A stretch of 64,000 nucleotides of DNA from Escherichia coli (GTDB lineage Bacteria; Pseudomonadota; Gammaproteobacteria; Enterobacterales; Enterobacteriaceae), in NCBI RefSeq assembly GCF_003991155.1, contig NZ_CP031293.1. One strand, written 5' to 3'. Below, one piece after another: positions 3,009-22,648 of this stretch (position 1 is the first letter of the stretch; the number at the start of each line of letters is the position of its first letter). Under the pieces are notes generated by a model. That model ran no database searches and was not told the origin of the DNA. It saw only the letters and a program-made list of their open reading frames with translations. The position numbers and the translations under genes were made by a program.

Positions 3009-3315
3009 CTTCTACTCCGGCTTTTTTAGCAGCGAAGCGTTTGATAAGCGAACCAATCGAGTCAGTACCGATGTAGCCGATGAACACGCTCGTTATATAA
3101 GCGAGATTGCTACTTAGTCCGGCGAAGTCGAGAAGGTCACGAATGAACCAGGCGATAATGGCGCACATCGTTGCGTCGATTACTGTTTTTGTAAACGCAC
3201 CGCCATTATATCTGCCGCGAAGGTACGCCATTGCAAACGCAAGGATTGCCCCGATGCCTTGTTCCTTTGCCGCGAGAATGGCAGCTAACAGGTCATGTTT
3301 TTCTGGCATCTTCAT
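2992..3315 (-). CDS. S: Holin S
   Basis: 107 aa, [39 protein letters not shown]..., lambda S-like with dual-start motif. Confidence 0.9.
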
Positions 3316-3615
3316 GTCTTACCCCCAATAAGGGGATTTGCTCTATTTAATTAGGAATAAGGTCGATTTCTGATAGAACAAATCCAGGCTACTGTGTTTA
3401 GTAATCAGATTTGTTCGTGACCGATATGCACGGGCAAAACGGCAGGAGGTTGTTAGCGCAGCCTCTTGCCACCCGCTTTCACGAAGCCAGCCATTGCGCT
3501 GGTTTTCTTTTATGCAAAGCACACCGCACCGTAGCCACAGCGGATAAGGTGATTATTTTGGTCTGTCTGGTATTTGGTTTGATGCGCTTTCAGAAAGGTC
3601 GTGCTTAAAACGCAA

Positions 3616-3650
3616 AAAGCCCCGAGCTATTAACTCAGGGCTTTATTTAA
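3616..3650 (-). terminator. tR'-like intrinsic terminator about 55 nt downstream of PR'
   Basis: Minus-strand RNA AAGCCCUGAG-UUAAUAG-CUCGGGGCUU followed by UUUUUG. Confidence 0.5.
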
Positions 3651-3677
3651 CGAGTGCATTTATCCATCGTTGAGTCA

Positions 3678-3706
3678 AATTTACCCAACTTTATTCAAAA
3701 AGTCAA
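3678..3706 (-). promoter_or_regulatory. Late promoter PR' (Q-utilisation region)
   Basis: Minus strand TTGACT-17 nt-TAAATT then TTGACTCAACGATGG, near-identical to the lambda PR' region as recalled. Confidence 0.6.
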
Positions 3707-3748
3707 TATTATGCCGTTAATATGTTGCCATCCGTGGCAATCATGCTG

Positions 3749-4372
3749 CTAACGTGTGACCGCATTCAAGATATTGTCTGCGATTGACTCTTCCTTGTGG
3801 CATTGCACCACCAGAGCGTCATACAGCGGCTTAACAGTGCGTGACCAGGTGGGTTGAGTAAGGTTTGGGATTAGCATCGTTACAGCGCGATATGCGGCGC
3901 TTGCTGGCATTCTTGAATAGCCGACACCTTTGCATCTTCCGCATTCTTTCTCAACAACTCTCCCCCACAACTCTGTTTTGGCAATATCAACCGCACGGCC
4001 TGTACCGTGGCAATCTCTGCATCTTGCGCCCGGCGTCGCGGCACTACGGCAATAATCCGCATAAGCGAATGTTGCGAGCACTTGCAGTACCTTTGCCTTA
4101 GTATTTCCTTCGAGCTTTGCCACACCACGGTATTTCCCCGATACCTTGTGTGCAAATTGCATCAGATAGTTGATAGCCTTTTGTTTGTCGTTCTGGCTGA
4201 GTTCGTGCTTACCGCAGAATGCAGCCATACCGAATCCGGCTTGTGATTGCGCCATCCCCATAGCAGCCATCACATCAGTACCGGAAAGGGAGTCAGAAGC
4301 CGTGGCCCGTGGTGAGTCGCTCATCATCGGGCTTTTTGGCGAATGAAATTTAGCTACGCTTTCGAGTCTCAT
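3749..4372 (-). CDS. Q: Late-gene antiterminator Q
   Basis: 207 aa with Cys-rich zinc-binding motif (CRDCHGTG...CGRCKG), positioned between nin region and PR'. Confidence 0.85.
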
Positions 4373-5034
4373 GCGCCTTCTCCCTGTACCTTAATCAATG
4401 TGAGGTTTCCGCAGAACACTGCTCCGGTATCGATATACATTTGGTTGGCAAACTTGAGTGGTTTCACTGCTGGCGTATGACCAAAGATGAACGTGTCCGC
4501 TCCCTTGATTTCTTTTACGATCCCGTCTTGTGAGTTGCTGATTCGTTCGCGGTTCCAGATTACCTGCTGATGAACAACTGGCTTTCCAAACTCGTATTCG
4601 TCACAAGGATAATCGGCGTGGCAGATAACATATTTTTTACCTTTGCTCACCAGTTCAATGATTAACGAAAGTTCATCTGCTTTATGGGCAAGAGCTTTAG
4701 CCAGAATTTCTTTGTCGTAATCGAGATTAAAGAACCAGCCACCGCCATTAAACAGCCAGTGATTGACGTTTCCACGCTCTGATAAGCCATCAATCATCAT
4801 TTGCTCATGGTTTCCACGTACAGCTCTGAACCAGGGGAATGTGATTAATTCCAGGCATTCGACGTTCTCTGTACCGCGATCGACCAAATCGCCAACCGAG
4901 ATAAGCAGGTCTTTTTTGATGTCGAATCCTATCGTCTCCAGTTTTTTCATCAGGTTCGTGTAGCATCCGTGCAGATCGCCAACTACCCAAATATTCCGGT
5001 ATTTGCTGCCATCAATTCTTTCGTAATAGCGCAT
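4369..5034 (-). CDS. ninI: Ser/Thr protein phosphatase (NinI)
   Basis: [25 protein letters not shown]... GDLVDRG, GNHE metallophosphatase motifs; start taken at internal Met matching lambda PPase. Confidence 0.85.
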
Positions 5035-5218
5035 CTCTTTCACTCCATCCGCGATGAACCATGAGAACGTCGTTGACGATGGCGTGCATTTTCCCGTCTT
5101 TATCATCAACGTATTTTCTTACCGTGCCGCGACTACATTTCAGTCTGCGTGCCACTTCTGTCTGGTTTCCGTATGCTTCAACGAGCATGTCTGGAATGGT
5201 TTTTACTGAGAACGTCAT
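5012..5218 (-). CDS. ninH: NinH
   Basis: 68 aa [37 protein letters not shown]..., lambda NinH-like. Confidence 0.8.
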
Positions 5219-5826
5219 GCGGCCTCACTTCTGCTATTTCGCAGGTCTTTGAGTTTCTGTTGGTACTCTGCCTTGATCGCCTTGCACTCTTCGACAGTCC
5301 AGCGATGGCGGTTATGGTTTGATTCGATTTCGTCTACTGCTTCCTGCCCGATGCGATTAATCAGTTCGACGCGATACGGAACGAGATTTCCGCTTTTGTG
5401 CTGGTTGCACACCACGCATTGCTTGTGAATATTGCGTTCATCAAATCGGAGTTGAGGTGCCGCAGCAGTTGTCCGGTAATGTCCGGCATCCCACTGAGCA
5501 GACGTGAGCGTTCCGCACGAGATACATGGTAAGTCGCGGTCTCTTTCTCTGATGAAGGCGTTTACGGCTTGTTGGGCTTGTTTAATCCAGTAACTGCGGG
5601 GCTTTAAGGCGAGTTTTCGAATCTTCAGTTTATCTTTCTGTTTCTGCTCCTCTCGTCGTCGTTTCTTCTCTGCTGCTTTTTCCGCTTTTTCGCGTTCTTT
5701 ACTTCGTCGTTCGAGTGCTATCTTGGTTCCACACTCTGGAGAGCACCACCACTGATTAGCGAATGCAGGGTGAAACCATTCCCGACATTCATCGTTTTTA
5801 CATCGTCTTCGCGCTGGTTTAGCCAT
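5215..5826 (-). CDS. ninG: NinG (Rap) recombination-associated protein
   Basis: 203 aa [22 protein letters not shown]..., Cys-rich, lambda NinG-like. Confidence 0.85.
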
Positions 5827-6533: not shown

Positions 6534-7057
6534 GCCGCCCTCCTGACGCCCTGCCCGATCGCCATCAATGCCGCTTTGGATACGGTAGTAAACATCCGTC
6601 GAGGATTGATGAACGGTCGCCAAATCAGCAGCATGGAACCTTTGCTGTTTCCCTTCTTCTCCAGCCCTGTCGATGGTTCGATAAAATTAATCCGTCCATC
6701 AGTGATGATGCGAACTTCGTCAATACTCTCCAGAGCCTTGCTGAACCATCCGACAGACATATCCTCTGGCACAAGCATCACTACCGTCTGTCGCTGTTGT
6801 ATGCACTGCTCAGCGGCTTTTTCCACCCACGGCCTGATATTGCTGTACGGTGGGTTATTCCAGATTGCACCGTGGCTTACCCACTCAGAATTGAGCGCGT
6901 CGTCGGCCTCAGTTAGCCAGTGAGCACACAGAGCATTTTTGTCGCTCGCTGCCGAATCCAGCCAGAATCCAAACTCAATATCCAGTGCATCAAAAAGCCA
7001 AAGCGGCGTTTGCCAGCAGTCCTTGTCGTGTGCTGGCGTATTTGATTTGATAGTCAT
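6530..7057 (-). CDS. Phage DNA N6-adenine methyltransferase (Dam-like)
   Basis: NPPYS catalytic motif; [25 protein letters not shown]...; ATGA overlap with ninB stop. Confidence 0.7.
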
Positions 7058-7497
7058 GCAGCCCGATCTCCCCATCTCGCTTTCCACTCCAGAGCCAGTC
7101 TCGCTTCGTCTGACCACTTAACGCCACGCTCTGTACCGAATGCCTGTATAAGCTCTAATAGCTCCGCAAATTCGCCTACACGCATCCTGCTGGTTGACTG
7201 GCCTATTACCACAAAGCCATTCCCGGCAAGGTTAGGAACAACATCCTGCTGCTTTAATGCTGCGGTAAACACACACTTCCAGCTTTCTGCATCCAGCCAA
7301 CGCCCATGCCATTCAACCTGACGAGAGACGTCACCTAAGCAGGCCCATAGCTTCCTGTTTTGGTCTAAGCTGCGGTTGCGTTCCTGAATGGTTACTACGA
7401 TTGGTTTGGTTGGGTCTGGAAGAATTTTCTGGATAGCTTGAATGGCGTTCTGCTGATGGATGGGGCTTCTTAGTTCAAACGTTAGTTTCCTCACCAT
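7054..7497 (-). CDS. ninB: NinB recombination protein
   Basis: 147 aa, near-identical to lambda NinB over most of its length as recalled. Confidence 0.85.
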   Translation of the reverse strand: MVRKLTFELRSPIHQQNAIQAIQKILPDPTKPIVVTIQERNRSLDQNRKLWACLGDVSRQVEWHGRWLDAESWKCVFTAALKQQDVVPNLAGNGFVVIGQSTSRMRVGEFAELLELIQAFGTERGVKWSDEARLALEWKARWGDRAA

Positions 7498-11538: not shown

Positions 11539-12189
11539 ATGAAAACTCAATTGATGGGAGAGCGCATTCGCGCTCGGAGAAAAGAACTCAAGATCAGGCA
11601 GGCCGCACTTGGAAAGATGGTCGGCGTGTCTAATGTTGCCATATCTCAGTGGGAACGCTCTGAGACAGAGCCAAATGGAGAGAATCTTCTCGCCCTGGCT
11701 AATGCGTTGAAGTGTTCCCCTGACTATCTGATGAAAGGAGAGGAAAGTCTTTCAAACATTGCCTATCACAGTAGGCATGATCCAAGAGGGTCATACCCTC
11801 TGATTAGCTGGGTGAGCGCAGGATGCTGGATGGAAGCTGTAGAACCATATCATAAGCGTGCAATAGATAACTGGTACGATACAACCGTAGACTGTTCAGA
11901 AGATTCGTTTTGGTTGGATGTGAAGGGAGACTCAATGACGGCTCCGGCCGGTCTCAGTATCCCTGAAGGAATGATAATACTCGTCGATCCTGAAGTAGAG
12001 CCGCGTAACGGGAAACTGGTAGTTGCAAAGCTCGAAGGAGAAAACGAGGCAACTTTCAAGAAGTTAGTTATTGATGCAGGCAGGAAGTTTCTAAAACCAC
12101 TTAACCCACAATATCCGATGATCGAGATCAACGGAAACTGCAAAATCATCGGCGTAGTTGTCGATGCAAAACTAGCAAACCTTCCATAA
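11539..12189 (+). CDS. cI: CI repressor (HTH + S24 LexA-like peptidase domain)
   Basis: N-terminal HTH (VGVSNVAISQWERSE), C-terminal S24 motifs (GDSM, K in VVAKLEGE). Confidence 0.9.
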   Translation: MKTQLMGERIRARRKELKIRQAALGKMVGVSNVAISQWERSETEPNGENLLALANALKCSPDYLMKGEESLSNIAYHSRHDPRGSYPLISWVSAGCWMEAVEPYHKRAIDNWYDTTVDCSEDSFWLDVKGDSMTAPAGLSIPEGMIILVDPEVEPRNGKLVVAKLEGENEATFKKLVIDAGRKFLKPLNPQYPMIEINGNCKIIGVVVDAKLANLP

Positions 12190-12190
12190 G

Positions 12191-12212
12191 GGGGCATTCG
12201 CCCCTTTTTTTT
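12191..12212 (+). terminator. Intrinsic terminator after cI
   Basis: GGGGC-ATTC-GCCCC followed by TTTTTTTTATTT. Confidence 0.7.
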
Positions 12213-12280
12213 ATTTCCTTTAAAAATCAAAGCCAAACTTAAGTTACGAAAGAAAATTTAAGTTTTCTTCAAAAATACTC

Positions 12281-12309
12281 TTGACCATTAATTAAAGAGA
12301 TCTTAAATT
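12281..12309 (+). promoter_or_regulatory. PL promoter with flanking OL operator half-sites
   Basis: TTGACC-17 nt-TAAATT; flanking palindromes CTTAAATTTAAG and TTAAGT repeats. Confidence 0.5.
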
Positions 12310-12795: not shown

Positions 12796-13095
12796 ATGAC
12801 AGTAGTCATTACATATCTAGCTGACGATAACGCCAGAAATCGCCGCAGAGCACGCAGGCAGGCTCAACGTGAACAGGCAATGCAAGAACAGCGACTGGCG
12901 CGAAAGATTGCGCTAAAGCTCTCTGGTTGCGTCAGAGCAGACAAAGCAGCATCACTCGGAAGCCTTCGCTGCAAGAAGGCAGAAGAAGTCGAGAGTAAAC
13001 AGAACCGTATTTACTACCGCAAGCCACGCAGTGAAATGGGTGTGACTTGTGTTGGTCGCCAGAAAATGAAATTAGGCAGCAAACCACTTATTTGA
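12796..13095 (+). CDS. N: Antitermination protein N
   Basis: Arg-rich motif NARNRRRARRQAQ; C-terminus RIYYRKPRSEMGVTCVGRQKMKLGSKPLI resembles lambda N. Confidence 0.8.
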   Translation: MTVVITYLADDNARNRRRARRQAQREQAMQEQRLARKIALKLSGCVRADKAASLGSLRCKKAEEVESKQNRIYYRKPRSEMGVTCVGRQKMKLGSKPLI

Positions 13096-13106: not shown

Positions 13107-13730
13107 ATGTCATCAATCCGCTTAACTACGAGAATGAAAGAGAAAATCGCTCGTAACGCTTTAATTAAGTCTGGGGTTTTCACTGAACTTGAAGAAGTAA
13201 CAAAGTTAAAGAACCAGCTTGCACTTGACGCCAGAGTTATTGCGTTTGGCGGTAAAAAGAAAACTGAGGAAGTGGATCAGTTATCATCCAGGTTAGTAGC
13301 TATAAGTGAAGAACTTGAAAAGATGGGATGTTCATTTTACTCATACGATGTTCGTTCTACTTCAATTTATCTGACTGTATCTGGCAGAAGGGTTGGATGG
13401 CATTCATATGGGAAAGACGGCAACGGCGAAGATATATTGCTCCCTACTCCAACCAAAGATAAATGCATGTTTGATGCAGAACACGAAATAACAAAAAGGT
13501 TTGATGAAATCTGCGCATTGCAACAAAAACTTGAAGCCAAGAAAAAGGATATCGAATCAAATGTATGGGCTGCTTTGAACTCAGTCACAACAGTTAAGCG
13601 ACTTATTGAAGTTTGGCCTGAAAGCAAAGAATTGCTACCAAAAGAAGCAGACAAAGCAAGTACAGCACTTCCTGCTTTACGGGTAGAAGATTTGAATAAG
13701 ATGATTGGACTTCCTTCCGAGTCCGCATAG
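13107..13730 (+). CDS. Hypothetical phage protein (207 aa) in the ral/sieB-equivalent position
   Basis: ORF with GAGGA RBS directly after N; no family recognised. Confidence 0.5.
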   Translation: MSSIRLTTRMKEKIARNALIKSGVFTELEEVTKLKNQLALDARVIAFGGKKKTEEVDQLSSRLVAISEELEKMGCSFYSYDVRSTSIYLTVSGRRVGWHSYGKDGNGEDILLPTPTKDKCMFDAEHEITKRFDEICALQQKLEAKKKDIESNVWAALNSVTTVKRLIEVWPESKELLPKEADKASTALPALRVEDLNKMIGLPSESA

Positions 13731-13864
13731 TCGGCCTTTATTTTTGGCACTAACAACAGAATAAACACTGCACTGTGTATTCATTCCAACGAGTGAATAC
13801 ACGGAGCAATGTCGCTCTTAACTAAACAGGAGCCGACTTGTTCTGATTATTGGAAATCTTCTTT

Positions 13865-13891
13865 GCCCTCCAGTGTGAGGGCGATTTTTTT
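13865..13891 (+). terminator. tL-like intrinsic terminator
   Basis: GCCCTC-CAGTGT-GAGGGC followed by GATTTTTTT, 12 nt upstream of next start codon. Confidence 0.5.
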
Positions 13892-13903: not shown

Positions 13904-14872
13904 ATGAGTGAAGTAACAGATTTAGTTGTTATTGAAAAAGCAAATGCAATGACTGTATTTCAGTCTGCCGACCAGATTGAAGAAATCCTTCAAAGGGTTG
14001 AACGTGAAGTTATGTCCTTTGTGCCTGATATCACAACGGCAAAGGGCAGAAAGGAGATCGCTTCTCTGGCGTATAAAGTTGCGCAGACGAAAACATATCT
14101 CGATGGTCTTGGCAAAGACCTTGTTGCTGAACTGAAGGAAATTCCAAAGCTAATTGATGCCAACCGCAAGACAGTGCGCGATCGCCTTGATGAGCTGAAA
14201 GCCAAGGCACGCCAGCCTCTTACTGATTATGAGGAAGAACAGGCGCGGATTAAAGCCGAAGAAGAAGCTAAGGCAGCAGCTGAAGCTCTCGCAAAGCAAA
14301 TTGAGTCTGACCATGAAATAGCTATTTTGATGGATCGCGAATTTGACCGCCAAAGAGAAGAGGCAAGACTCAAAGCGGAGCAGGAAAAGCGAGAGCATGA
14401 AGAACGCTTAAAAAGAGAAGCTGAAGAGAAAGCCAGAGCAGAAGCCGAAGCAAAGGCAAAAGCCGAAATTGAAGCAGCAGCAAGGCGAGAAGCAGAAGCT
14501 AAGGCCGCAGCGGAACGTGCAGAGCGTGAACGCATTGAAGCCGAGCAACGAGCACAGCGCGAAGCAAAAGAGGCAGCAGAACGAGCTGAAAGAGAAAAGC
14601 AGGCGGCAATTGAAGCAGAACGCCGAAAAGCACAGGAGGAGGCTGAACGAATCCGGCGCGAGGCTGAAGCAAAAGAGCAAGCCAGAATAGCAGAAGAAAA
14701 AAGAATCAAGGACGAAGAAGAGCGTAGAGCAAAGGATAAAGCTCACCGGAAAGAAGTAAATAACAAAATACTTGCTGACCTTATCAAGGTTGGCGCATCA
14801 GAAGATGTTGCTAAAAATATCATAACAGCCATCGTAAAAGGCGAAGTATTCGCAACAAAAATAACCTACTAA
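13904..14872 (+). CDS. Hypothetical protein with long charged E/R/K/A-rich single alpha-helix segment
   Basis: N-terminal about 110 aa domain, about 170 aa low-complexity AEAK/ERAE repeats, short C-terminal domain; GGAGG RBS. Confidence 0.5.
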   Translation: MSEVTDLVVIEKANAMTVFQSADQIEEILQRVEREVMSFVPDITTAKGRKEIASLAYKVAQTKTYLDGLGKDLVAELKEIPKLIDANRKTVRDRLDELKAKARQPLTDYEEEQARIKAEEEAKAAAEALAKQIESDHEIAILMDREFDRQREEARLKAEQEKREHEERLKREAEEKARAEAEAKAKAEIEAAARREAEAKAAAERAERERIEAEQRAQREAKEAAERAEREKQAAIEAERRKAQEEAERIRREAEAKEQARIAEEKRIKDEEERRAKDKAHRKEVNNKILADLIKVGASEDVAKNIITAIVKGEVFATKITY

Positions 14873-14895: not shown

Positions 14896-15027
14896 ATGAT
14901 TTACGCAATCGCGGGAGGCGCTCGCATGGGTGCCTTCCAACTAAATGAATCTTTACTTGAACGAATCACCCGTAAATTACGTGACGGATGGAAAAGAGTT
15001 GAGGTCTTATTATGCGCAATGAAATAG
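14896..15027 (+). CDS. cIII: CIII (FtsH inhibitor)
   Basis: 43 aa MIYAIAGG...ESLLERITRKLRDGWKR, lambda CIII core motif; below ORF-track cutoff. Confidence 0.65.
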   Translation: MIYAIAGGARMGAFQLNESLLERITRKLRDGWKRVEVLLCAMK

Positions 15028-15164
15028 CCATCAATCACCAGATGCTTCGTGCTGCACAGAACAAAGCAGTAATAGCCAGATTTATTGGTGATTCAAAAAT
15101 GTGGCTTGAAGCAAATAAAGCAATGAAATCAGCTATCAACCTTCCGTGGTATCGCAGGAAATGA
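15012..15164 (+). CDS. kil: Kil-like protein
   Basis: 50 aa MRNEIAINHQMLRAAQNKAVIARFIGDSKMWLEANKAMK; FIGD motif resembles lambda Kil as recalled; overlaps cIII 3' end. Confidence 0.5.
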   Translation: MRNEIAINHQMLRAAQNKAVIARFIGDSKMWLEANKAMKSAINLPWYRRK

Positions 15165-15418
15165 GTTTTACAGATAACTGGTCAGACGAAGAATTCATTC
15201 GTCAGATGAAAGAATTAGTCGGTAACGAAGGAGATATGCATGTCACTTGCAACCACAGTGAAGGAGAGCAAGTTACAGAGACGCATGTACACGCAGCAGG
15301 CGTTAATGTATCGCCAGAAGGGAGATCGTGAAGGTGTTCGCGTATTTTTAAATGCGGCAAAGACTGAAGTATTAAATCAGCGTTATTTCCTTGGGCCGTG
15401 TCCATTCTGAGGTGAATT

Positions 15419-16126
15419 ATGGATTTGAACAAATTCGATGAACCATTCAGCCCTGAAGATATCGAATGGCGAATACAGCAAAGCGGTAAAACACGCGATG
15501 GCAAGGTGTGGGCTATGGTGCTGGCTTATGTCACGAACCGGGCAATCATGAAACGCCTGGACGATGTTTGCGGCAAAGCAGGATGGCGCAATGAATACCG
15601 CGATATTCCCAACAACGGCGGAGTTGAATGCGGCATATCAATCAAGATTGATTCCGAATGGGTAACCAAATGGGATGCTGCTGAAAACACGCAGGTAGAA
15701 GCCGTCAAAGGTGGTCGTTCCGGTGCAATGAAGCGTGCTGCCGTTCAATGGGGAATCGGTCGGTATCTGTATAACCTTGAGGAAGGTTTCGCACAAACAT
15801 CTCTCGATAAAAAGCAGGGATGGCACAGGGCAAAACTGAAGGATGGAACAGGATTTTACTGGCTCCCTCCATCGCTGCCGGGATGGGCAATCCCAGCATC
15901 AGATAACAAACCATCACCAGAAAATACCAACCAGAAATCTCCATCGGTTGACTGCGAACAAATCCTGAAAGACTTCAGCGATTATGCATCAACAGAAACT
16001 GACAAGAAAAAACTCATCGAGCGTTATCAGCGTGACTGGCAATTAATGGCTGGCAACGAGGAGGCGCAGGCTAAATGCGTTCAGGTAATGAACATCAGAG
16101 TTAACGAACTAAAACAGGCGGCATAA
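15419..16126 (+). CDS. Putative single-strand annealing protein (Rad52/Sak-like)
   Basis: 235 aa immediately upstream of ssb in the recombination module; family assignment from memory. Confidence 0.45.
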   Translation: MDLNKFDEPFSPEDIEWRIQQSGKTRDGKVWAMVLAYVTNRAIMKRLDDVCGKAGWRNEYRDIPNNGGVECGISIKIDSEWVTKWDAAENTQVEAVKGGRSGAMKRAAVQWGIGRYLYNLEEGFAQTSLDKKQGWHRAKLKDGTGFYWLPPSLPGWAIPASDNKPSPENTNQKSPSVDCEQILKDFSDYASTETDKKKLIERYQRDWQLMAGNEEAQAKCVQVMNIRVNELKQAA

Positions 16127-16633
16127 ATGGCAAGCAGAGGCGTAAATAAGGTGATTATCCTTGGTCGGGTAGGACAAGACCCGGAAGTTCGATACTCACC
16201 ATCAGGAACAGCGTTCGCTAACCTGACAATAGCCACGTCAGAACAATGGCGAGATAAAAATACTGGCGAGCAAAAGGAATTAACTGAATGGCATCGTGTT
16301 GCTGTATCCGGGAAACTGGCTGAGGTCGTGGGGCAGTATGTGAAAAAAGGTGATCAGATTTATTTCGAGGGAATGCTGAGAACCAGAAAGTGGAAAGACC
16401 AGTCAGGGCAAGACCGTTACACAACCGAGGTTCATGTCGGAATTAATGGCGTGATGCAAATGCTTGGCGGCATTGGCGACAGCAAACAACAAGCAGCCAG
16501 CAGGCAATCACAGAAGCCACAGCAGCAATCATCACCAGCACAACACAACGAACCTCCGATGGATTTTGACGACGATATACCCTTTGCACCAGTAACTCTC
16601 CCCTTCCCTCGTCACGCTATTCACGCAATTTAA
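16127..16633 (+). CDS. ssb: Single-stranded DNA-binding protein
   Basis: OB-fold N-terminus [34 protein letters not shown]..., Gly/Gln-rich linker, DFDDDIPF acidic tip followed by extra 15 aa. Confidence 0.9.
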
Positions 16634-16646
16634 TCAGGAGAAAATC

Positions 16647-16940
16647 ATGCCAGCGCCTCTGTATGGTGCGGATGACCCGCGCCGCTGTTCCGGCAATTCC
16701 GTATCGGAGGTGCTGGATAAATTCAGGAAAAACTACGACCTGATAATGTCGCTACCGCAGGAAACGAAAGAGGAAAAGGAATTTCGCCATTGTATATGGC
16801 TTGCAGAGAAAGAAGAACGCGAGCGAATTTACCAGACATCAATCCGACCATTCCGCAAAGCCACATATACCCACTTCCCTGAAATTGACCCGCGCCTGCG
16901 TAATTACCGCTCACGCTATGGCGCTATCAGTAATGACTGA
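16647..16940 (+). CDS. Hypothetical phage protein (97 aa)
   Basis: ORF with AGGAG RBS. Confidence 0.45.
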
Positions 16941-17114
16941 GGAATTTACCATGAGAGGACTTGCATACAATCCCGGCATTCTTCCGGCAGAAATGATTAT
17001 TCGCCAACGTGTAAAGCCAATGCCATCGAGAGAGGAATTGCTTAAGAGAAATTCTTTTCCATCAGTAAATCAAAACAAATATCTGAATGCGATGTGGCGT
17101 AAAGGAGGTAAGCA

Positions 17115-17741
17115 GTGAGCAAGATTGATTATCAAAAGCTTCGTGAAATCGCTGAAAAAACAAAAATTGCTGGTGAAACACCCGTAATGCCTTTCGATCA
17201 GCGAATTAATGCGCTTAACGATTTTATGAAGCACTTTTCGCCAGATATCGCGCTGGCATTGTTGGATGAACGGGAAAGAAACCTGCAATACATCAAACGC
17301 CGCGACCAGGAGAACGAGGAAATTGCGCTAACGGTAGGGAAGCTGAGAGTTGAGCTGGAAGGCAAAGACAGCAAAATAGCCAATCTTACCGCCGAACGCG
17401 ATGCTCTTCGTGAAGGTGAGATGGGCGACGCTAGGCATAGCAACACACGGGCCGCAGCTGATATCTACTTCCAACTGGTCGAGGAGTGCGAAATTCCTGC
17501 TGGCGGATCTCTGGTCGAGTACGTTGACGATATGCGCGAGAAGCTGGAAGCCGCAGAGAAGCGCATTGCTGAGCTGGAGTTGCTGGAGGTTGTGCTTCCG
17601 CAATGCTATAGCATGTTGCATCGCGTCGATTTTGACGAGCCTTACCACACTGAAATGGTTTACAGGCAGCATCAGGTTCTTGAGGCACTGCACAACGCTG
17701 GAATAAACGTCACCGAAGCAGGTAAAGGAGAGGCATCATGA
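17115..17741 (+). CDS. Hypothetical phage protein, possibly Ea22-like
   Basis: 208 aa coiled-coil-rich protein in the lambda ea22 map position. Confidence 0.4.
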
Positions 17742-18241
17742 GCACTATCACAAGAGAATGGCTGCAGCAGGCTATCAACGATTATGAAAGCGTTCGTGAT
17801 GAGCTTCCTTTCGGGCTTGATGATTACCAGGGGAATATCCTGGCTGCCCTGCGTATCGCACTGGCATCGCTGGAAGCAGAGCCGGTGGCGTGGAAGGTAA
17901 CATTCACGCAAATTGACCGTGAATATAACACGTTCACTGGTATGTATTCTGACAAAGCAGAAGTCGAACGGTGGGTGCGGCTGCATAAAGCATGTAATTT
18001 TCGGGCAGATATAACACCGCTTTATACCGCCAAGCCAGTGCCGGTAACTCCGGATGGTTGGATAAGCTGTAGTGAGCGAATGCCGAACGACGCGCAGTGG
18101 TGCGTAGTGAACACAGAATACGGGTATTACGTGCAATGCTGGTCTGAAGGTCAAGGGTGGCTTGGTGATGATATCAGCATCCCTGAATGCGATGTAATCA
18201 ATTGGATGCCGCTACCAGAACCACCGCAGGAGATGAAGTAA
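17738..18241 (+). CDS. Hypothetical protein, DUF551-like C-terminus
   Basis: C-terminal WISCSERMP...WMPLPEPP resembles DUF551 as recalled. Confidence 0.45.
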   Translation: MSTITREWLQQAINDYESVRDELPFGLDDYQGNILAALRIALASLEAEPVAWKVTFTQIDREYNTFTGMYSDKAEVERWVRLHKACNFRADITPLYTAKPVPVTPDGWISCSERMPNDAQWCVVNTEYGYYVQCWSEGQGWLGDDISIPECDVINWMPLPEPPQEMK

Positions 18242-18525
18242 TGGACTCCTTCGCGAAATATACGATTATTGACTGGATTGCCTTCCTTCAGGTTTTGCTC
18301 ATCTGGTTTTATATGGCTTACAGGAGTGGACAGTGGATTGTCAGTGTAGCCTGTAGCAGGGGATGGCGTTGGTGGAACCGAAAGAATAAAAAAGCACTGG
18401 CCTTGGATTCGTTTTACGAAGCATTCAATCTTAACAGCCTTCAGCCTGGTTCTGTCATTGTAGTCACCACTCAAAGCGGCATGACGATACAAATTCACAA
18501 GCCAAAGGAGGAAGGTCGTGGCTAA
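18241..18525 (+). CDS. Hypothetical membrane protein
   Basis: Hydrophobic segment IIDWIAFLQVLLIWFYMAY; start chosen at MDSFAKY. Confidence 0.35.
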   Translation: MDSFAKYTIIDWIAFLQVLLIWFYMAYRSGQWIVSVACSRGWRWWNRKNKKALALDSFYEAFNLNSLQPGSVIVVTTQSGMTIQIHKPKEEGRG

Positions 18526-18799
18526 CCTGCAACTTGCCGTCAAAGGTGAATACTTCGACGCCATGATTCGCGGGGAGAAAACGGAAGAGTATCGCCTGTG
18601 CAATGACTACTGGAATAAACGCCTCGTTAATCGTAAGTATGACCGCCTGATTATCACAAAGGGATATCCGAAGCGCGACGATTCCAGCCGCAGAATTGAC
18701 GTCCCGTATGACGGATATGAAATCAAGACAATCACACATCCGCACTTCGGCGATAAACCGGTAACGGTATTCGCGATAAAGGTGAATATCAATTGCTAA
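18518..18799 (+). CDS. Hypothetical protein (ASCH-like?)
   Basis: 93 aa ORF, AGGAGG RBS. Confidence 0.4.
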   Translation: MANLQLAVKGEYFDAMIRGEKTEEYRLCNDYWNKRLVNRKYDRLIITKGYPKRDDSSRRIDVPYDGYEIKTITHPHFGDKPVTVFAIKVNINC

Positions 18800-19691: not shown

Positions 19692-19883
19692 ATGACCGAT
19701 ACCAGCCTGATTCCTGAGAAAGAAGTGATGAACAAGCTCGGTGTTTCATCACGTCAGACAATCTGGAACTATACCAAACGGCACGGATTTCCGAAGCCAG
19801 TCAGAACCCACCCCAAATCATACCTTCGTGAAGCTGTTGAAGGGTGGATTCTTAACGGTGGCGTTAATCAGAAATGCTCCTGA
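19692..19883 (+). CDS. xis: Excisionase / AlpA-family DNA-binding protein
   Basis: 63 aa small HTH protein overlapping the 3' end of int on the opposite strand. Confidence 0.7.
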   Translation: MTDTSLIPEKEVMNKLGVSSRQTIWNYTKRHGFPKPVRTHPKSYLREAVEGWILNGGVNQKCS

Positions 19884-21042
19884 TGTGCCAGAACAATTTA
19901 TCAGCGTGAAGCTCATACGCTTTGCGCTGAGCCTCTATCCAGTCGTGTTTATTGTATACGGACATTATCCCGCCAAGTTCATGACCGAGCATTCGCTCAG
20001 TAACATGAGGCTCGACATTCATCTCGGACAGACGTGTAACAAGCGTTCTTCTGAAATCGTGTGTTCGCCAGTAACCTAGATCCATCCCTCCCCTTATTCT
20101 ATTTACGAATCGGTTGGCTGCAGCGATGCTGATCGGTTTGTTTATGTCTTCTCCAGGGAAAAGAACATCATTGTACGTTGTCATGGCCTTTTCGAGGAAA
20201 GGCTTAATTTGTTCGAAGATTGGACGGCGGATAGCATTACCCATCTTGCTATGCTCTTTCGGTACGGTCCATACGTTTTCCAGCAGGTCAAATTCTGTCT
20301 TTTTTGCCAGCCTAAGCTCTGAGAGCCTCGCCCCCCACAGCATAAGCATCTGATGAAGTAGCTTATTTGACGTAGACGCACGGCTTCTTTCAATAGCAAG
20401 CCAAATCTTAGCCAGTTCGTGATACGACAGTACACGATCCCCTACCTCAGCGCGGGAGCCGAAGTCCCTTGGTTGGATGCTCATAATTGCGCAACTATCT
20501 ATCAACTGACGCCGCATGCACCAACTTATTGCTGATCTTAGTTGACTTAGCACCTGCCTTGCTCGGCGTGGATTATCTCTTTCTTCTTCGGTAAGCAGGT
20601 CAACCCATTGCTTAACCGTGATAGAAGATGCCGGACGATTAGGGAAGGCGTCATGCATGCGCTTCATAACCGTTGATCGGTAAAGTGCCTGGGTCTTTTC
20701 TCTGAGAGTTGTAGAGACGTAGTTGTCGAACCAGTAGTCGAGACACTGGGCGACCGTCATGGAGTTCTCCACCTTCTCTTCAAAATAAGTGCGTGGATCC
20801 GTTCCTGAGAAATAGAGCTTTCGCAAGTCAGCAGTGATCTGTCTGGCATCCTTCAAAGACATGGATGGGTATCGACCAAGCCCAAGTCGATTAGGCTTGC
20901 CATGCCAGCGATAGCGGTACTGGAACTGGATGACCCCCTTCGGTGAAATTCGTACGCTGAGGCCATCGGCATCAGCCACTTCTTGTGGGCCCGAATATGG
21001 TTTACCATAAATAGTACGAAGTTTTGTGTCGCTTATAGCCAT
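19864..21042 (-). CDS. int: Tyrosine integrase
   Basis: 392 aa; C-terminal catalytic region HDFRRT...LGHELGG...YNKH. Confidence 0.9.
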   Translation of the reverse strand: MAISDTKLRTIYGKPYSGPQEVADADGLSVRISPKGVIQFQYRYRWHGKPNRLGLGRYPSMSLKDARQITADLRKLYFSGTDPRTYFEEKVENSMTVAQCLDYWFDNYVSTTLREKTQALYRSTVMKRMHDAFPNRPASSITVKQWVDLLTEEERDNPRRARQVLSQLRSAISWCMRRQLIDSCAIMSIQPRDFGSRAEVGDRVLSYHELAKIWLAIERSRASTSNKLLHQMLMLWGARLSELRLAKKTEFDLLENVWTVPKEHSKMGNAIRRPIFEQIKPFLEKAMTTYNDVLFPGEDINKPISIAAANRFVNRIRGGMDLGYWRTHDFRRTLVTRLSEMNVEPHVTERMLGHELGGIMSVYNKHDWIEAQRKAYELHADKLFWHIRSISD

Positions 21043-21223
21043 AAATAATATTTGGTACGCTCAGAAATAATGGTTTGGTACACATCTGGTACACAATATC
21101 ACATGGACAACAGCGCACAGTAAACAACTATATTTGACGTTCGTAGACATACTCAGGTGAAAAAATGGTTGTTTTTCGAGTTATAACAGACAGTTAATTA
21201 ACTACAGTGGACAATGCTAGACA
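21043..21223. promoter_or_regulatory. Prophage attachment-site region (arm-type repeats; core not resolved)
   Basis: TGGTAC(G/A)C repeats at 21053, 21076, 21087 and GACAATG repeats near 21205-21225, between int and sbcB. Confidence 0.35.
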
Positions 21224-22648
21224 ATGACAGACACAGATAAACAACCTACCTTCCTCTTTCACGATTACGAAACCTTTGGAACGCACCCCGCGTTAGATCG
21301 CCCTGCACAGTTCGCAGCCATTCGCACTGATAACGAATTCAATGTCATCGGCGAACCCGAAGTCTTTTACTGCAAGCCCGCGGATGACTATTTACCCCAG
21401 CCTGGAGCAGTATTAATTACCGGTATTACCCCGCAGGAGGCACGGGCGAAAGGAGAAAACGAAGCCGCGTTTGCCGCCCGTATTCACTCGCTTTTTACCG
21501 TACCGAAGACCTGTATTCTGGGCTACAACAATGTGCGTTTCGACGACGAAGTCACACGCAACGTTTTTTATCGTAATTTCTACGATCCTTACGCCTGGAG
21601 CTGGCAGCATGATAACTCGCGCTGGGATTTACTGGATGTTATGCGTGCCTGTTATGCCCTGCGCCCGGAAGGAATAAACTGGCCTGAAAATGATGACGGT
21701 CTACCGAGCTTTCGCCTTGAGCATTTAACCAAAGCGAATGGTATTGAACATAGCAACGCCCACGATGCGATGGCTGATGTGTACGCCACTATTGCGATGG
21801 CGAAACTGGTAAAAACGCGTCAGCCACGCCTGTTTGATTATCTCTTTACCCATCGTAATAAACACAAACTGATGGCGTTGATTGATGTTCCGCAGATGAA
21901 ACCCCTGGTTCACGTTTCCGGAATGTTTGGGGCATGGCGTGGCAATACCAGCTGGGTGGCACCGCTGGCGTGGCATCCTGAAAATCGCAATGCCGTAATT
22001 ATGGTGGATTTGGCAGGAGACATTTCGCCATTACTGGAGCTGGATAGCGACACATTGCGCGAGCGTTTATATACCGCAAAAGCCGATCTTGGCGATAACG
22101 CCGCCGTTCCGGTTAAGCTGGTGCATATCAATAAATGTCCGGTACTGGCCCAGGCGAATACGCTACGCCCGGAAGATGCCGACCGACTGGGAATTAATCG
22201 TCAGCATTGCCTCGATAACCTAAAAATTCTGCGTGAAAATCCGCAAGTGCGTGAAAAAGTGGTGGCGATATTCGCGGAAGCCGAACCGTTTACGCCTTCA
22301 GATAACGTGGATGCACAGCTTTATAATGGCTTTTTCAGTGACGCCGATCGTGCAGCAATGAAAATTGTGCTGGAAACCGAGCCGCGTAATTTACCGGCAC
22401 TGGATATCACTTTTGTTGATAAACGAATTGAAAAACTGTTGTTCAATTATCGAGCGCGCAACTTCCCGGGGACGCTGGATTATGCCGAGCAGCAACGCTG
22501 GCTTGAGCACCGCCGCCAGGTCTTCACGCCAGAGTTTTTGCAGGGCTACGCTGATGAATTGCAGATGCTGGCACAACAGTATGCCGATGACAAAGAGAAA
22601 GTGGCGCTGTTAAAAGCGCTTTGGCAGTACGCGGAAGAGATTGTCTAA
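21224..22648 (+). CDS. sbcB: Exodeoxyribonuclease I
   Basis: 474 aa, matches E. coli SbcB throughout except first about 9 residues (MTDTDKQP here). Confidence 0.9.
   Translation: MTDTDKQPTFLFHDYETFGTHPALDRPAQFAAIRTDNEFNVIGEPEVFYCKPADDYLPQPGAVLITGITPQEARAKGENEAAFAARIHSLFTVPKTCILGYNNVRFDDEVTRNVFYRNFYDPYAWSWQHDNSRWDLLDVMRACYALRPEGINWPENDDGLPSFRLEHLTKANGIEHSNAHDAMADVYATIAMAKLVKTRQPRLFDYLFTHRNKHKLMALIDVPQMKPLVHVSGMFGAWRGNTSWVAPLAWHPENRNAVIMVDLAGDISPLLELDSDTLRERLYTAKADLGDNAAVPVKLVHINKCPVLAQANTLRPEDADRLGINRQHCLDNLKILRENPQVREKVVAIFAEAEPFTPSDNVDAQLYNGFFSDADRAAMKIVLETEPRNLPALDITFVDKRIEKLLFNYRARNFPGTLDYAEQQRWLEHRRQVFTPEFLQGYADELQMLAQQYADDKEKVALLKALWQYAEEIV

Follow-up and report, generated by a model that had tools for sequence, protein, structure and literature searches.

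Recombination (Rec) modules of lambdoid phages have been catalogued recently, and those of 325 phages were sorted into 13 functional types (Zheng, Casjens et al., 2025, PMC12315714). One of them, the HK75 type, has an anti-RecBCD function, an SSB and a single-strand annealing protein and no nuclease, and occurs in 27 of the 325 phages; the ES18 type is the HK75 type with a nuclease (PMC12315714). Nuclease-less modules with Abc2 have been known since the work on phage P22 and have been structurally characterised, and they are included in the 2025 catalogue. The Abc2-RecC structure places Abc2 on RecC, beside the elements that recognise Chi (Wilkinson et al., 2022, PMC9836394). Helicase and nuclease of the Abc2-bound RecBCD are active, but the enzyme is unresponsive to Chi and its nuclease activity on the 5' strand is up-regulated; it resembles a constitutively Chi-activated enzyme, and phages encoding Abc2 are characteristically devoid of an exonuclease (PMC9836394). 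According to Murphy's model, Abc2 makes RecBCD carry out resection for the phage annealing protein and possibly also load that protein, although the hijack and the loading step are a model even for P22 that "remains to be tested" (PMC9836394). The module of HK620 (hkaM, sak4, ssb, abc2), which has been studied by experiment, likewise holds an annealing protein, an SSB and Abc2 without an exonuclease, and its annealing protein is stimulated by the cognate SSB via the last six residues of the latter (Hutinet et al., 2018, PMC5928155). For phage epsilon34, the genome paper of 2008 listed Abc2, a possible nuclease, an SSB and an "Erf" (PMC2629481).

The stretch of 64,000 nucleotides analysed here (the window) contains the right-hand part of an Escherichia coli lambdoid prophage inserted at sbcB; homology with prophage-free E. 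coli chromosomes starts at about 21240, within the start of sbcB. The early-left operon of the prophage lies on the plus strand and starts at a cI-type repressor gene (11539-12189), after which come a terminator and a PL-like promoter (12188-12309). The gene order is then an N-like gene (12796-13095, plus strand), an Nmad5 gene (13107-13730, plus strand), a gene for a 322 aa coiled-coil protein, cIII (14896-15027, plus strand; PF02061, E-value = 4e-15), kil (15012-15164, plus strand; PF06301, E-value = 1.7e-20), two small ORFs, the annealing protein, SSB, Abc2 and DUF2737 genes, several small genes and an AlpA-like xis (19692-19883, plus strand). The integrase gene (19864-21042) is on the minus strand, opposite to the operon. 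The early-right operon, also on the minus strand, encodes O-like and DnaB-like proteins, the recombination mediator NinB/Orf (7054-7497, minus strand; phrog_72, E-value = 2.2e-57), a methyltransferase, the junction-specific endonuclease NinG/Rap (5215-5826, minus strand; phrog_171, E-value = 1e-127), NinI and Q. NinG/Rap is a resolvase and not a resection exonuclease. Chi sites are absent from the prophage part of the window, but with an expectation of only 0.25 per strand their absence carries no information.

Contiguous genes for an annealing protein, an SSB and an anti-RecBCD protein in the early-left operon, with no nuclease gene among them, are the features by which the HK75 type is recognised, and all of them were found here. 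It is therefore very probable that this region, in an N-antiterminated early-left operon, holds a complete recombination module that is P22-like, depends on Abc2 and belongs to the HK75 type. At the nucleotide level the viable phage HK75 matches 97% of the cassette (2231-nt query) with 98.1% identity. The phages mEp235, mEpX2, N7, Sf6 and IME10 are nearly as similar, and identity with the Salmonella phages epsilon34 and g341c is about 89%. Of 5426 complete E. coli genomes, 295 carry at least 80% of the cassette. The module type has thus already been described and the prophage family is common.

Concerning the annealing protein (235 aa; 15419-16126, plus strand), whose gene comes after the N-like gene, cIII and kil and before xis, the match with PF04098 (Rad52_Rad22) covers residues 4-136 with 91.9 bits against a cut-off of 20.3 (E-value = 5e-26), and a further match was obtained with phrog_1097 (E-value = 3.5e-130). 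An AF2 model based on 32 homologues reached a pLDDT of 85.7. When it was compared with the PDB by Foldseek, the best 16 matches were all yeast Mgm101 or human RAD52 (E-values from 3e-4, probability 0.97-1.0). Profile and model agree that the protein is a member of the Rad52/Sak family, predicted to anneal single strands and to form a ring. The first-pass annotation had read this ORF as a putative Rad52/Sak-like annealing protein and had placed cIII and kil just upstream of it, and both readings hold.

The protein is built of a Rad52/Sak-type N-terminal domain (residues ~1-160) and a C-terminal domain of three helices (179-234), joined by a disordered linker (163-175). The C-terminal domain is of the P22 Erf type, as it matches residues 148-205 of Erf with an hhalign probability of 99.7 and 72% identity over 58 residues. 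The N-terminal domain showed no similarity to P22 Erf (hhalign probability 0.07) and the Pfam scan found no match with PF04404 (ERF) in the protein. An assignment to the Erf type of P22 was consequently rejected, since the ERF domain is absent and homology is confined to the C-terminal 58 residues. The "Erf" of epsilon34 also resembles P22 Erf in its C-terminal 56 residues only, which was called a known domain swap (PMC2629481), and the swap of the Erf C-terminal domain is confirmed in the annealing protein studied here. A link between this domain and Red-beta is not claimed, the hhalign comparison with lambda Bet being negative (probability 0.4). Residues 129-164 gave a weak match with the PRP40 WW domain (E-value = 0.1).

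The ssb gene (16127-16633, plus strand) starts immediately after the end of the annealing-protein gene at 16126 and encodes a bacterial-type SSB of 168 aa, in accordance with the earlier reading of this ORF. It carries the OB-fold ssDNA-binding domain PF00436 (125 bits against a cut-off of 26, E-value = 1.6e-36) and scores 166.9 bits with TIGR00621, where the cut-off is 53.95. The end of the protein has an unusual layout: an 11-residue motif identical to that of the host, with the canonical DDDIPF tip, is followed by 15 further residues. The tip is accordingly internal and does not form the free C-terminus. Binding of the SSB tip by host partners needs a free terminal carboxylate, as seen in the structure of ExoI with the SSB C-terminus. 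The SSBs of HK75, mEp235 and epsilon34 have the identical 15-residue extension. The SSB of Sf6 ends at IPF, and there the last part of an inserted HNH gene is this same DNA, coding for the same 14 residues.

After the 11-residue motif, the extension follows the pattern AP(V/I)(G/T)L(Q/P)(Y/F)....H.(I/F/L). Unrelated proteins that have an OB fold or are larger also bear this bipartite tail, in Vibrio phages, in mEp554 and in myophages of Klebsiella, Serratia, E. coli and Pseudomonas; because the tail recurs on unrelated phage proteins, it is a conserved feature and not a deletion scar. The DNA of the tail is present in 405 of the 5426 E. coli genomes. A search of representative sequences with the 39 aa tail gave 16 matches, mostly fragments, the query being too short to gauge how far the tail has spread. 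A literature search on the extended SSB tail found nothing. Tentatively, the tail may either hide or retarget the tip by which host enzymes, exonuclease I among them, are normally recruited, which would make this a phage-private SSB.

The next gene is separated from the ssb stop by a 13-nt spacer, has its own AGGAG ribosome-binding site and encodes Abc2, anti-RecBCD protein 2 (97 aa; 16647-16940, plus strand; PF11043 and phrog_656). The match with PF11043 (Anti-RecBCD_p2) is full length, with 215.9 bits against a cut-off of 25 (E-value = 6.2e-65). Identity with P22 Abc2 is 94.8% over all 97 residues, and the Abc2 chain of PDB entry 8b1t is matched with an E-value of 2.8e-59. Like the matches of the annealing protein and the SSB, these greatly exceed what chance would give. 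The two proteins differ at residues 65, 76, 78, 86 and 97 only, so that residues 1-64 are identical and P68 is kept. In cryoEM structures of the P22 protein, residues 3-52 are ordered on RecC, the model extends to residue 66 in the PpiB-bound complex and Pro68 engages PpiB (PMC9836394). As all five differences fall outside residues 1-64 and P68, the RecC-ordered residues and Pro68 are unchanged.

By this homology, Abc2 is the functional counterpart of Gam. The first-pass annotation had noted that no Gam was recognisable and had left the ORFs after the SSB unassigned. The former statement is correct as far as homology is concerned (tblastn), but in function it fails because the very next gene is abc2, and the latter no longer stands for 16647-16940. 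The recombination module therefore reaches at least position 16940, and not 16633. Directly after abc2 lies a gene for a small DUF2737 protein (55 aa; 16951-17118, plus strand; PF10930, E-value = 1.1e-30), a homologue of P22 orf56 with 77% identity. It is a constant neighbour downstream of abc2, which it follows directly in P22, HK75, mEp235 and epsilon34; in Sf6 one gene (gene 24) lies between them.

On these grounds a mechanism can be proposed. Abc2 would bind RecC of the host RecBCD and render the enzyme blind to Chi. RecBCD would then resect DNA ends for the phage, and the annealing protein of the phage, rather than RecA, would receive the resulting 3' single strand. The phage SSB may coat this strand, the Rad52-like ring of the annealing protein may anneal it to its complement, and annealing would lead to genome circularisation, concatemers and repair. 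The Erf-type C-terminal domain of the annealing protein would be a candidate partner-docking domain. If resection is supplied by an Abc2-redirected RecBCD, the phage needs neither its own exonuclease nor an inhibitor of the Gam type. The suggestion of the first-pass annotation that the module may rely on host nucleases was thus essentially right, and the reason is Abc2, the proposed hijacker of RecBCD (PMC9836394).

Some observations speak against this model. Clear homologues of Abc1 and Arf are absent here (tblastn), though P22 uses both for full activity, and the internal position of the DDDIPF tip means that the partner contacts of the SSB may differ from known cases. It could also be argued that Abc2 is only a protective antagonist of RecBCD, acting like Gam, and that resection is carried out by other host enzymes, for instance RecJ with RecQ. 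The effects of Abc2 on RecBCD in vitro are moderate and the loading of the phage recombinase is a model (PMC9836394), in the catalogue of Zheng et al. Abc2 is simply an anti-RecBCD function (PMC12315714), and co-expression of Abc2 with the Sak4 annealing protein of HK620 produced no rise in oligonucleotide recombineering (PMC5928155). That assay, however, needs no resection. Moreover, the Abc2-RecBCD complex retains its helicase and nuclease activities and is similar to an enzyme constitutively activated by Chi, the phages that encode Abc2 are characteristically without an exonuclease (PMC9836394), and Hutinet et al. cite Murphy (2000) for the conversion of RecBCD into a 5'-3' exonuclease (PMC5928155). 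A purely antagonistic Abc2 is therefore considered unlikely, and redirection of RecBCD by Abc2 is preferred.

Neither lambda Exo, Bet and Gam nor P22 Abc1, Arf or the DnaQ-like exonuclease of mEp235 had a tblastn match in the 64-kb window, and Pfam and PHROG scans of the window detected no nuclease of the RecE/YqaJ type. The pairing of a 5'-3' exonuclease with an annealing protein, which defines Lambda Red and RecET, is accordingly missing from the window (tblastn, Pfam, PHROGs). Between kil and the DUF2737 gene there is no Exo, RecE/YqaJ, DnaQ-like or HNH gene, and there is no room for one because the intergenic gaps measure only 0 and 13 nt. The ORFs downstream of Abc2 encode the DUF2737 protein, an Ead/Ea22-like protein, a DUF551 protein, an ASCH-like protein of 93 aa (18518-18799) and two small ORFs. 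Scans of every ORF from 16647 to xis against Pfam and PHROGs found no nuclease family, and this includes the ORFs at 16647-18799. The earlier statement that no 5'-3' exonuclease is recognisable up to xis is hence confirmed.

An unrecognised phage nuclease could nevertheless be concealed among the early-left genes, the candidates being the ASCH-like 93 aa protein, the DUF551 protein, the Ea22-like protein and the 322 aa protein upstream of cIII; a nuclease partner among the downstream ORFs had been put forward in the first-pass annotation. Several early-left ORFs have no known function. The ASCH assignment itself comes from a weak Pfam match (E-value = 0.046) and the NCBI names of relatives, and a single-sequence AlphaFold model of this 93 aa ORF gave a pLDDT of 46, below the usable range. 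The 322 aa protein, for its part, adjoins recombination genes in very distant phages. However, none of the candidates matched a nuclease family in Pfam, PHROGs, NCBIfam or the PDB sequences; specifically, a 25-sequence profile of the 93 aa ORF retrieved nothing from the PDB sequences, and the DUF551 and 322 aa proteins retrieved only coiled-coil noise. The comparative evidence is stronger: the genes after DUF2737 differ among HK75, epsilon34 and Sf6, in mEp235 the DUF2737 gene is followed directly by xis, and no gene of this stretch travels with the core module. As the genes downstream of abc2 vary and mEp235 has DUF2737 alone, an obligatory nuclease hidden there is unlikely, and the proposal of a downstream nuclease partner is not supported. 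The 322 aa protein, as described below, is missing from HK75, mEp235 and epsilon34 and coexists with YqaJ, Exo or RecE in D3, phiLM21, phi80 and a Yersinia phage, so it is no substitute for a nuclease. Taken over all candidates, a hidden phage nuclease is very improbable.

A different reason for the lack of an exonuclease would be decay, with the module being a non-functional remnant that has lost a gene such as the DnaQ-like one of mEp235 and epsilon34. Exactly between ssb and abc2, mEp235, mEpX2, epsilon34 and g341c carry a gene for a DnaQ-like 3'-5' exonuclease of the Rv2179c family (182 aa; PF16473, E-value = 1.3e-73), and Sf6 has an HNH endonuclease in the same slot. These close relatives show that a nuclease is sometimes added, which is also a point against a model in which none is needed. 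Yet all ORFs of the module studied here are intact and the ssb-abc2 junction, with its spacer and ribosome-binding site, is clean. The plaque-forming phage HK75 has the same arrangement, and 262 E. coli genomes have ssb joined directly to abc2. Furthermore, the extra gene encodes a 3'-5' DnaQ-type enzyme and not a resection nuclease, and the nuclease-less form is a separate functional type in the catalogue of Zheng et al. (PMC12315714). Decay is hardly credible in view of these data, and a complete module that uses the host RecBCD is retained as the most probable explanation.

Two small ORFs, both on the plus strand and each encoding 56 aa, separate kil from the annealing-protein gene. The first (ORF A; 15161-15331) encodes an acidic protein (phrog_2123, E-value = 4.3e-39), its ATG overlaps the kil stop and it is 96% identical in HK75 and mEp235. 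It was considered as a homologue of P22 Arf and rejected, the likeness being limited to a 7-residue motif (WSDEEFI, as compared with FSDEEFI in Arf; pairwise E-value = 0.012). The second (ORF B; 15240-15410; phrog_1723, E-value = 4.5e-34) overlaps ORF A but is read in a different frame, and it immediately precedes the annealing-protein gene, the place held by arf in P22. It is 34% identical to gp37 of epsilon34 (E-value = 4e-6), which is found in the equivalent place.

Further upstream, the 322 aa coiled-coil protein (13904-14872, plus strand; phrog_1376) is a full-length homologue of phi80 Agt/Mog, with 51% identity from end to end (E-value = 2e-64). In the phi80 GenBank record, agt is annotated as an antitoxin or modifier of GamL, a toxic anti-RecBCD protein, and it lies directly upstream of gamL-rec-exo. 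Synteny with recombination genes extends to other phages: a homologue with 48% identity directly follows Erf-SSB in Vibrio phage BT-1011, others immediately precede the genes of Erf and a YqaJ exonuclease in Pseudomonas phage D3 and Sinorhizobium phage phiLM21, another is upstream of cIII and RecE-RecT in the Yersinia phage, and that of mEp234 precedes cIII, kil and an Erf-like gene. This position parallels that of DUF1351 beside annealing-protein genes in Firmicutes phages, but a sequence link was not found, since Pfam scans of five Agt/Mog-like members with E-values up to 1 revealed neither a family nor a connection to DUF1351. In Sf6 it is gene 33, but HK75, mEp235 and epsilon34 lack the gene, which is therefore not obligatory. 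The main text of the 2025 catalogue of Rec modules makes no mention of the protein (PMC12315714). Its recurrent neighbourhood suggests that it is possibly an accessory of the recombination module, and if so it could modulate the anti-RecBCD step or the processing of DNA ends. The family, which stands beside Erf, RecT and Rad52-type genes in phages of five bacterial genera, would then be a fifth general component of Rec modules. We only tentatively suggest that the extended SSB tail and the Agt/Mog-like protein are both conserved features that lie outside the current four-function description of such modules.

The practical value of the analysis is a correct annotation, that of a complete and probably functional module predicted to depend on the host RecBCD. 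Zheng et al. explicitly left as a question how an annealing protein, an SSB and a RecBCD modifier come to fit each other as partners (PMC12315714). Four features seen here could help to explain such matching when modules are shuffled, namely the extension of the SSB tail, the shared C-terminal domain of the Erf type, the conserved C-terminal tail of Abc2 (residues 67-97) and the Agt/Mog-like neighbour.

Compared with known systems, the module shares with Lambda Red (gam, bet, exo) the operon position after cIII and kil and the combination of single-strand annealing with neutralisation of RecBCD. It differs in that homologues of Exo, Bet and Gam are absent and that, in the published model of Abc2, RecBCD is modified and used and not blocked at its DNA-binding site (PMC9836394). 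HK620 has the same combination of an annealing protein, a cognate SSB and Abc2 without an exonuclease, but its annealing protein is the RecA-like Sak4 and its SSB is distant and non-canonical, ending in NDYPPF, while here a Rad52-like annealing protein is accompanied by a bacterial-type SSB with an extended tail. Concerning P22 (arf, erf, abc1, abc2), the position after c3 and kil, the orf56/DUF2737 gene after abc2 and the lack of a phage exonuclease are common to both, as are the nearly identical Abc2 and the shared C-terminal 58 residues of the annealing proteins noted above. The annealing domain, however, is of the Rad52/Sak type (PF04098) and not ERF (PF04404), an SSB is present, and Abc1 and Arf are missing. 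The type represented by ES18, epsilon34 and mEp235 has the same annealing protein, SSB and Abc2, which are 87-100% identical at the protein level, and is distinguished by the extra gene between ssb and abc2, a slot that is empty both here and in HK75. In HK75, the class C prototype, a Nun-like gene replaces the N, Nmad5 and Agt/Mog-like genes upstream, the set of "ea" genes downstream is another one, and the integrase differs. Between these flanks the two phages have the same order of cIII, kil, small ORF, Rad52-type annealing protein, SSB, Abc2 and DUF2737, again with no nuclease, and their SSBs are 100%, their Abc2 proteins 97% and the N-terminal domains of their annealing proteins 99% identical.

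The anti-RecBCD protein Abc2 (abc2, 16647-16940) probably has a counterpart in phage mEp554, where Erf is followed by an SSB with an extended tail, a gene annotated as endonuclease VII and then a 93-aa protein (2070-2351 of the mEp554 sequence). The latter has no match in Pfam. Residues 62-97 of Abc2 align with its last 37 residues at 43% identity (E-value = 8e-10), and the mEp554 protein is probably a divergent Abc2. The part that is conserved corresponds to the Abc2 tail, which is disordered in the cryoEM structure.

Upstream, a 322-aa coiled-coil protein is encoded on the plus strand at 13904-14872. It belongs to phrog_1376, is without a Pfam family and presents 51% identity with Agt/Mog of phi80, which is annotated as an 'anti-toxin for Gam'. 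This Agt/Mog-like protein could be a Rec-module accessory that has so far gone unlisted. Homologues adjoining Erf or RecT, exonuclease or SSB genes were observed in D3, phiLM21, a Yersinia phage, Vibrio BT-1011 and mEp234. Immediately 3' of the N-like gene, and upstream of a strong terminator-like hairpin at 13863-13884, lies a plus-strand gene (13107-13730) for a protein with the 'nucleotide modification associated domain 5' (Nmad5; PF18757, E-value = 3.7e-72).

Two small plus-strand ORFs, each predicted to encode 56 aa and each assigned to its own PHROG family, are located between kil and the annealing-protein gene: ORF A at 15161-15331 and ORF B at 15240-15410, with 92 nt shared by the two and read in different frames. 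Both are kept in HK75, mEp235 and Sf6, and gp37 of epsilon34 is homologous to ORF B (E-value = 4e-6), while the likeness of ORF A to P22 Arf is limited to the motif WSDEEFI. In the Rad52-family annealing protein itself (15419-16126), residues 129-164, which follow the Rad52 core and precede the linker, form a strongly conserved, strand-rich segment (GW..AK.KD..FYW.PP.LP.WA.P) across which model confidence is high; its match with the PRP40 WW domain is weak (E-value = 0.1). Further downstream, the 93-aa ORF at 18518-18799 (plus strand, phrog_625) has relatives named by NCBI as 'ASCH domain-containing' or 'RNA-binding' proteins. Its Pfam ASCH match is weak (E-value = 0.046) and its single-sequence model was unusable.

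At the prophage end (19692-21240), the integrase gene (19864-21042, minus strand) is convergent with an AlpA-like xis, the two overlapping by 20 nt, and mEp234 has the same int/xis layout. The insertion point of the prophage falls within the opening codons of sbcB, the gene for exonuclease I, to which the prophage gives a new 5' end. The same int/xis was found at sbcB in 540 of the 5426 E. coli genomes, O157:H7 among them. In the host chromosome past sbcB, G+C content is very low between 42000 and 52000 (0.28-0.38, against about 0.5 elsewhere).

Beyond its canonical tip (11 residues), the SSB carries 15 more residues, corresponding to the last 15 codons of ssb (16589-16633). The DNA of this extension is contained in 405 of the 5426 E. 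coli genomes, and a literature search on the extended SSB tail found no report of it. The bipartite tail is also kept on otherwise unrelated proteins from Vibrio, Pseudomonas, Klebsiella, Serratia and E. coli phages. Directly after ssb, only 13 nt (16634-16646) separate it from abc2, a site that is variable among related phages (4133-4681, 3741-4289 and 3221-3700 in comparison sequences L002, L003 and L005, respectively). In mEp235, mEpX2, epsilon34 and g341c the slot is occupied by a gene for a DnaQ-like 3'-5' exonuclease of the Rv2179c family, whereas in Sf6 it holds an HNH endonuclease gene. The SSB extension (14 residues in this comparison) is the end of the Sf6 HNH ORF, with identical coding DNA, while the SSB of Sf6 itself terminates at IPF.
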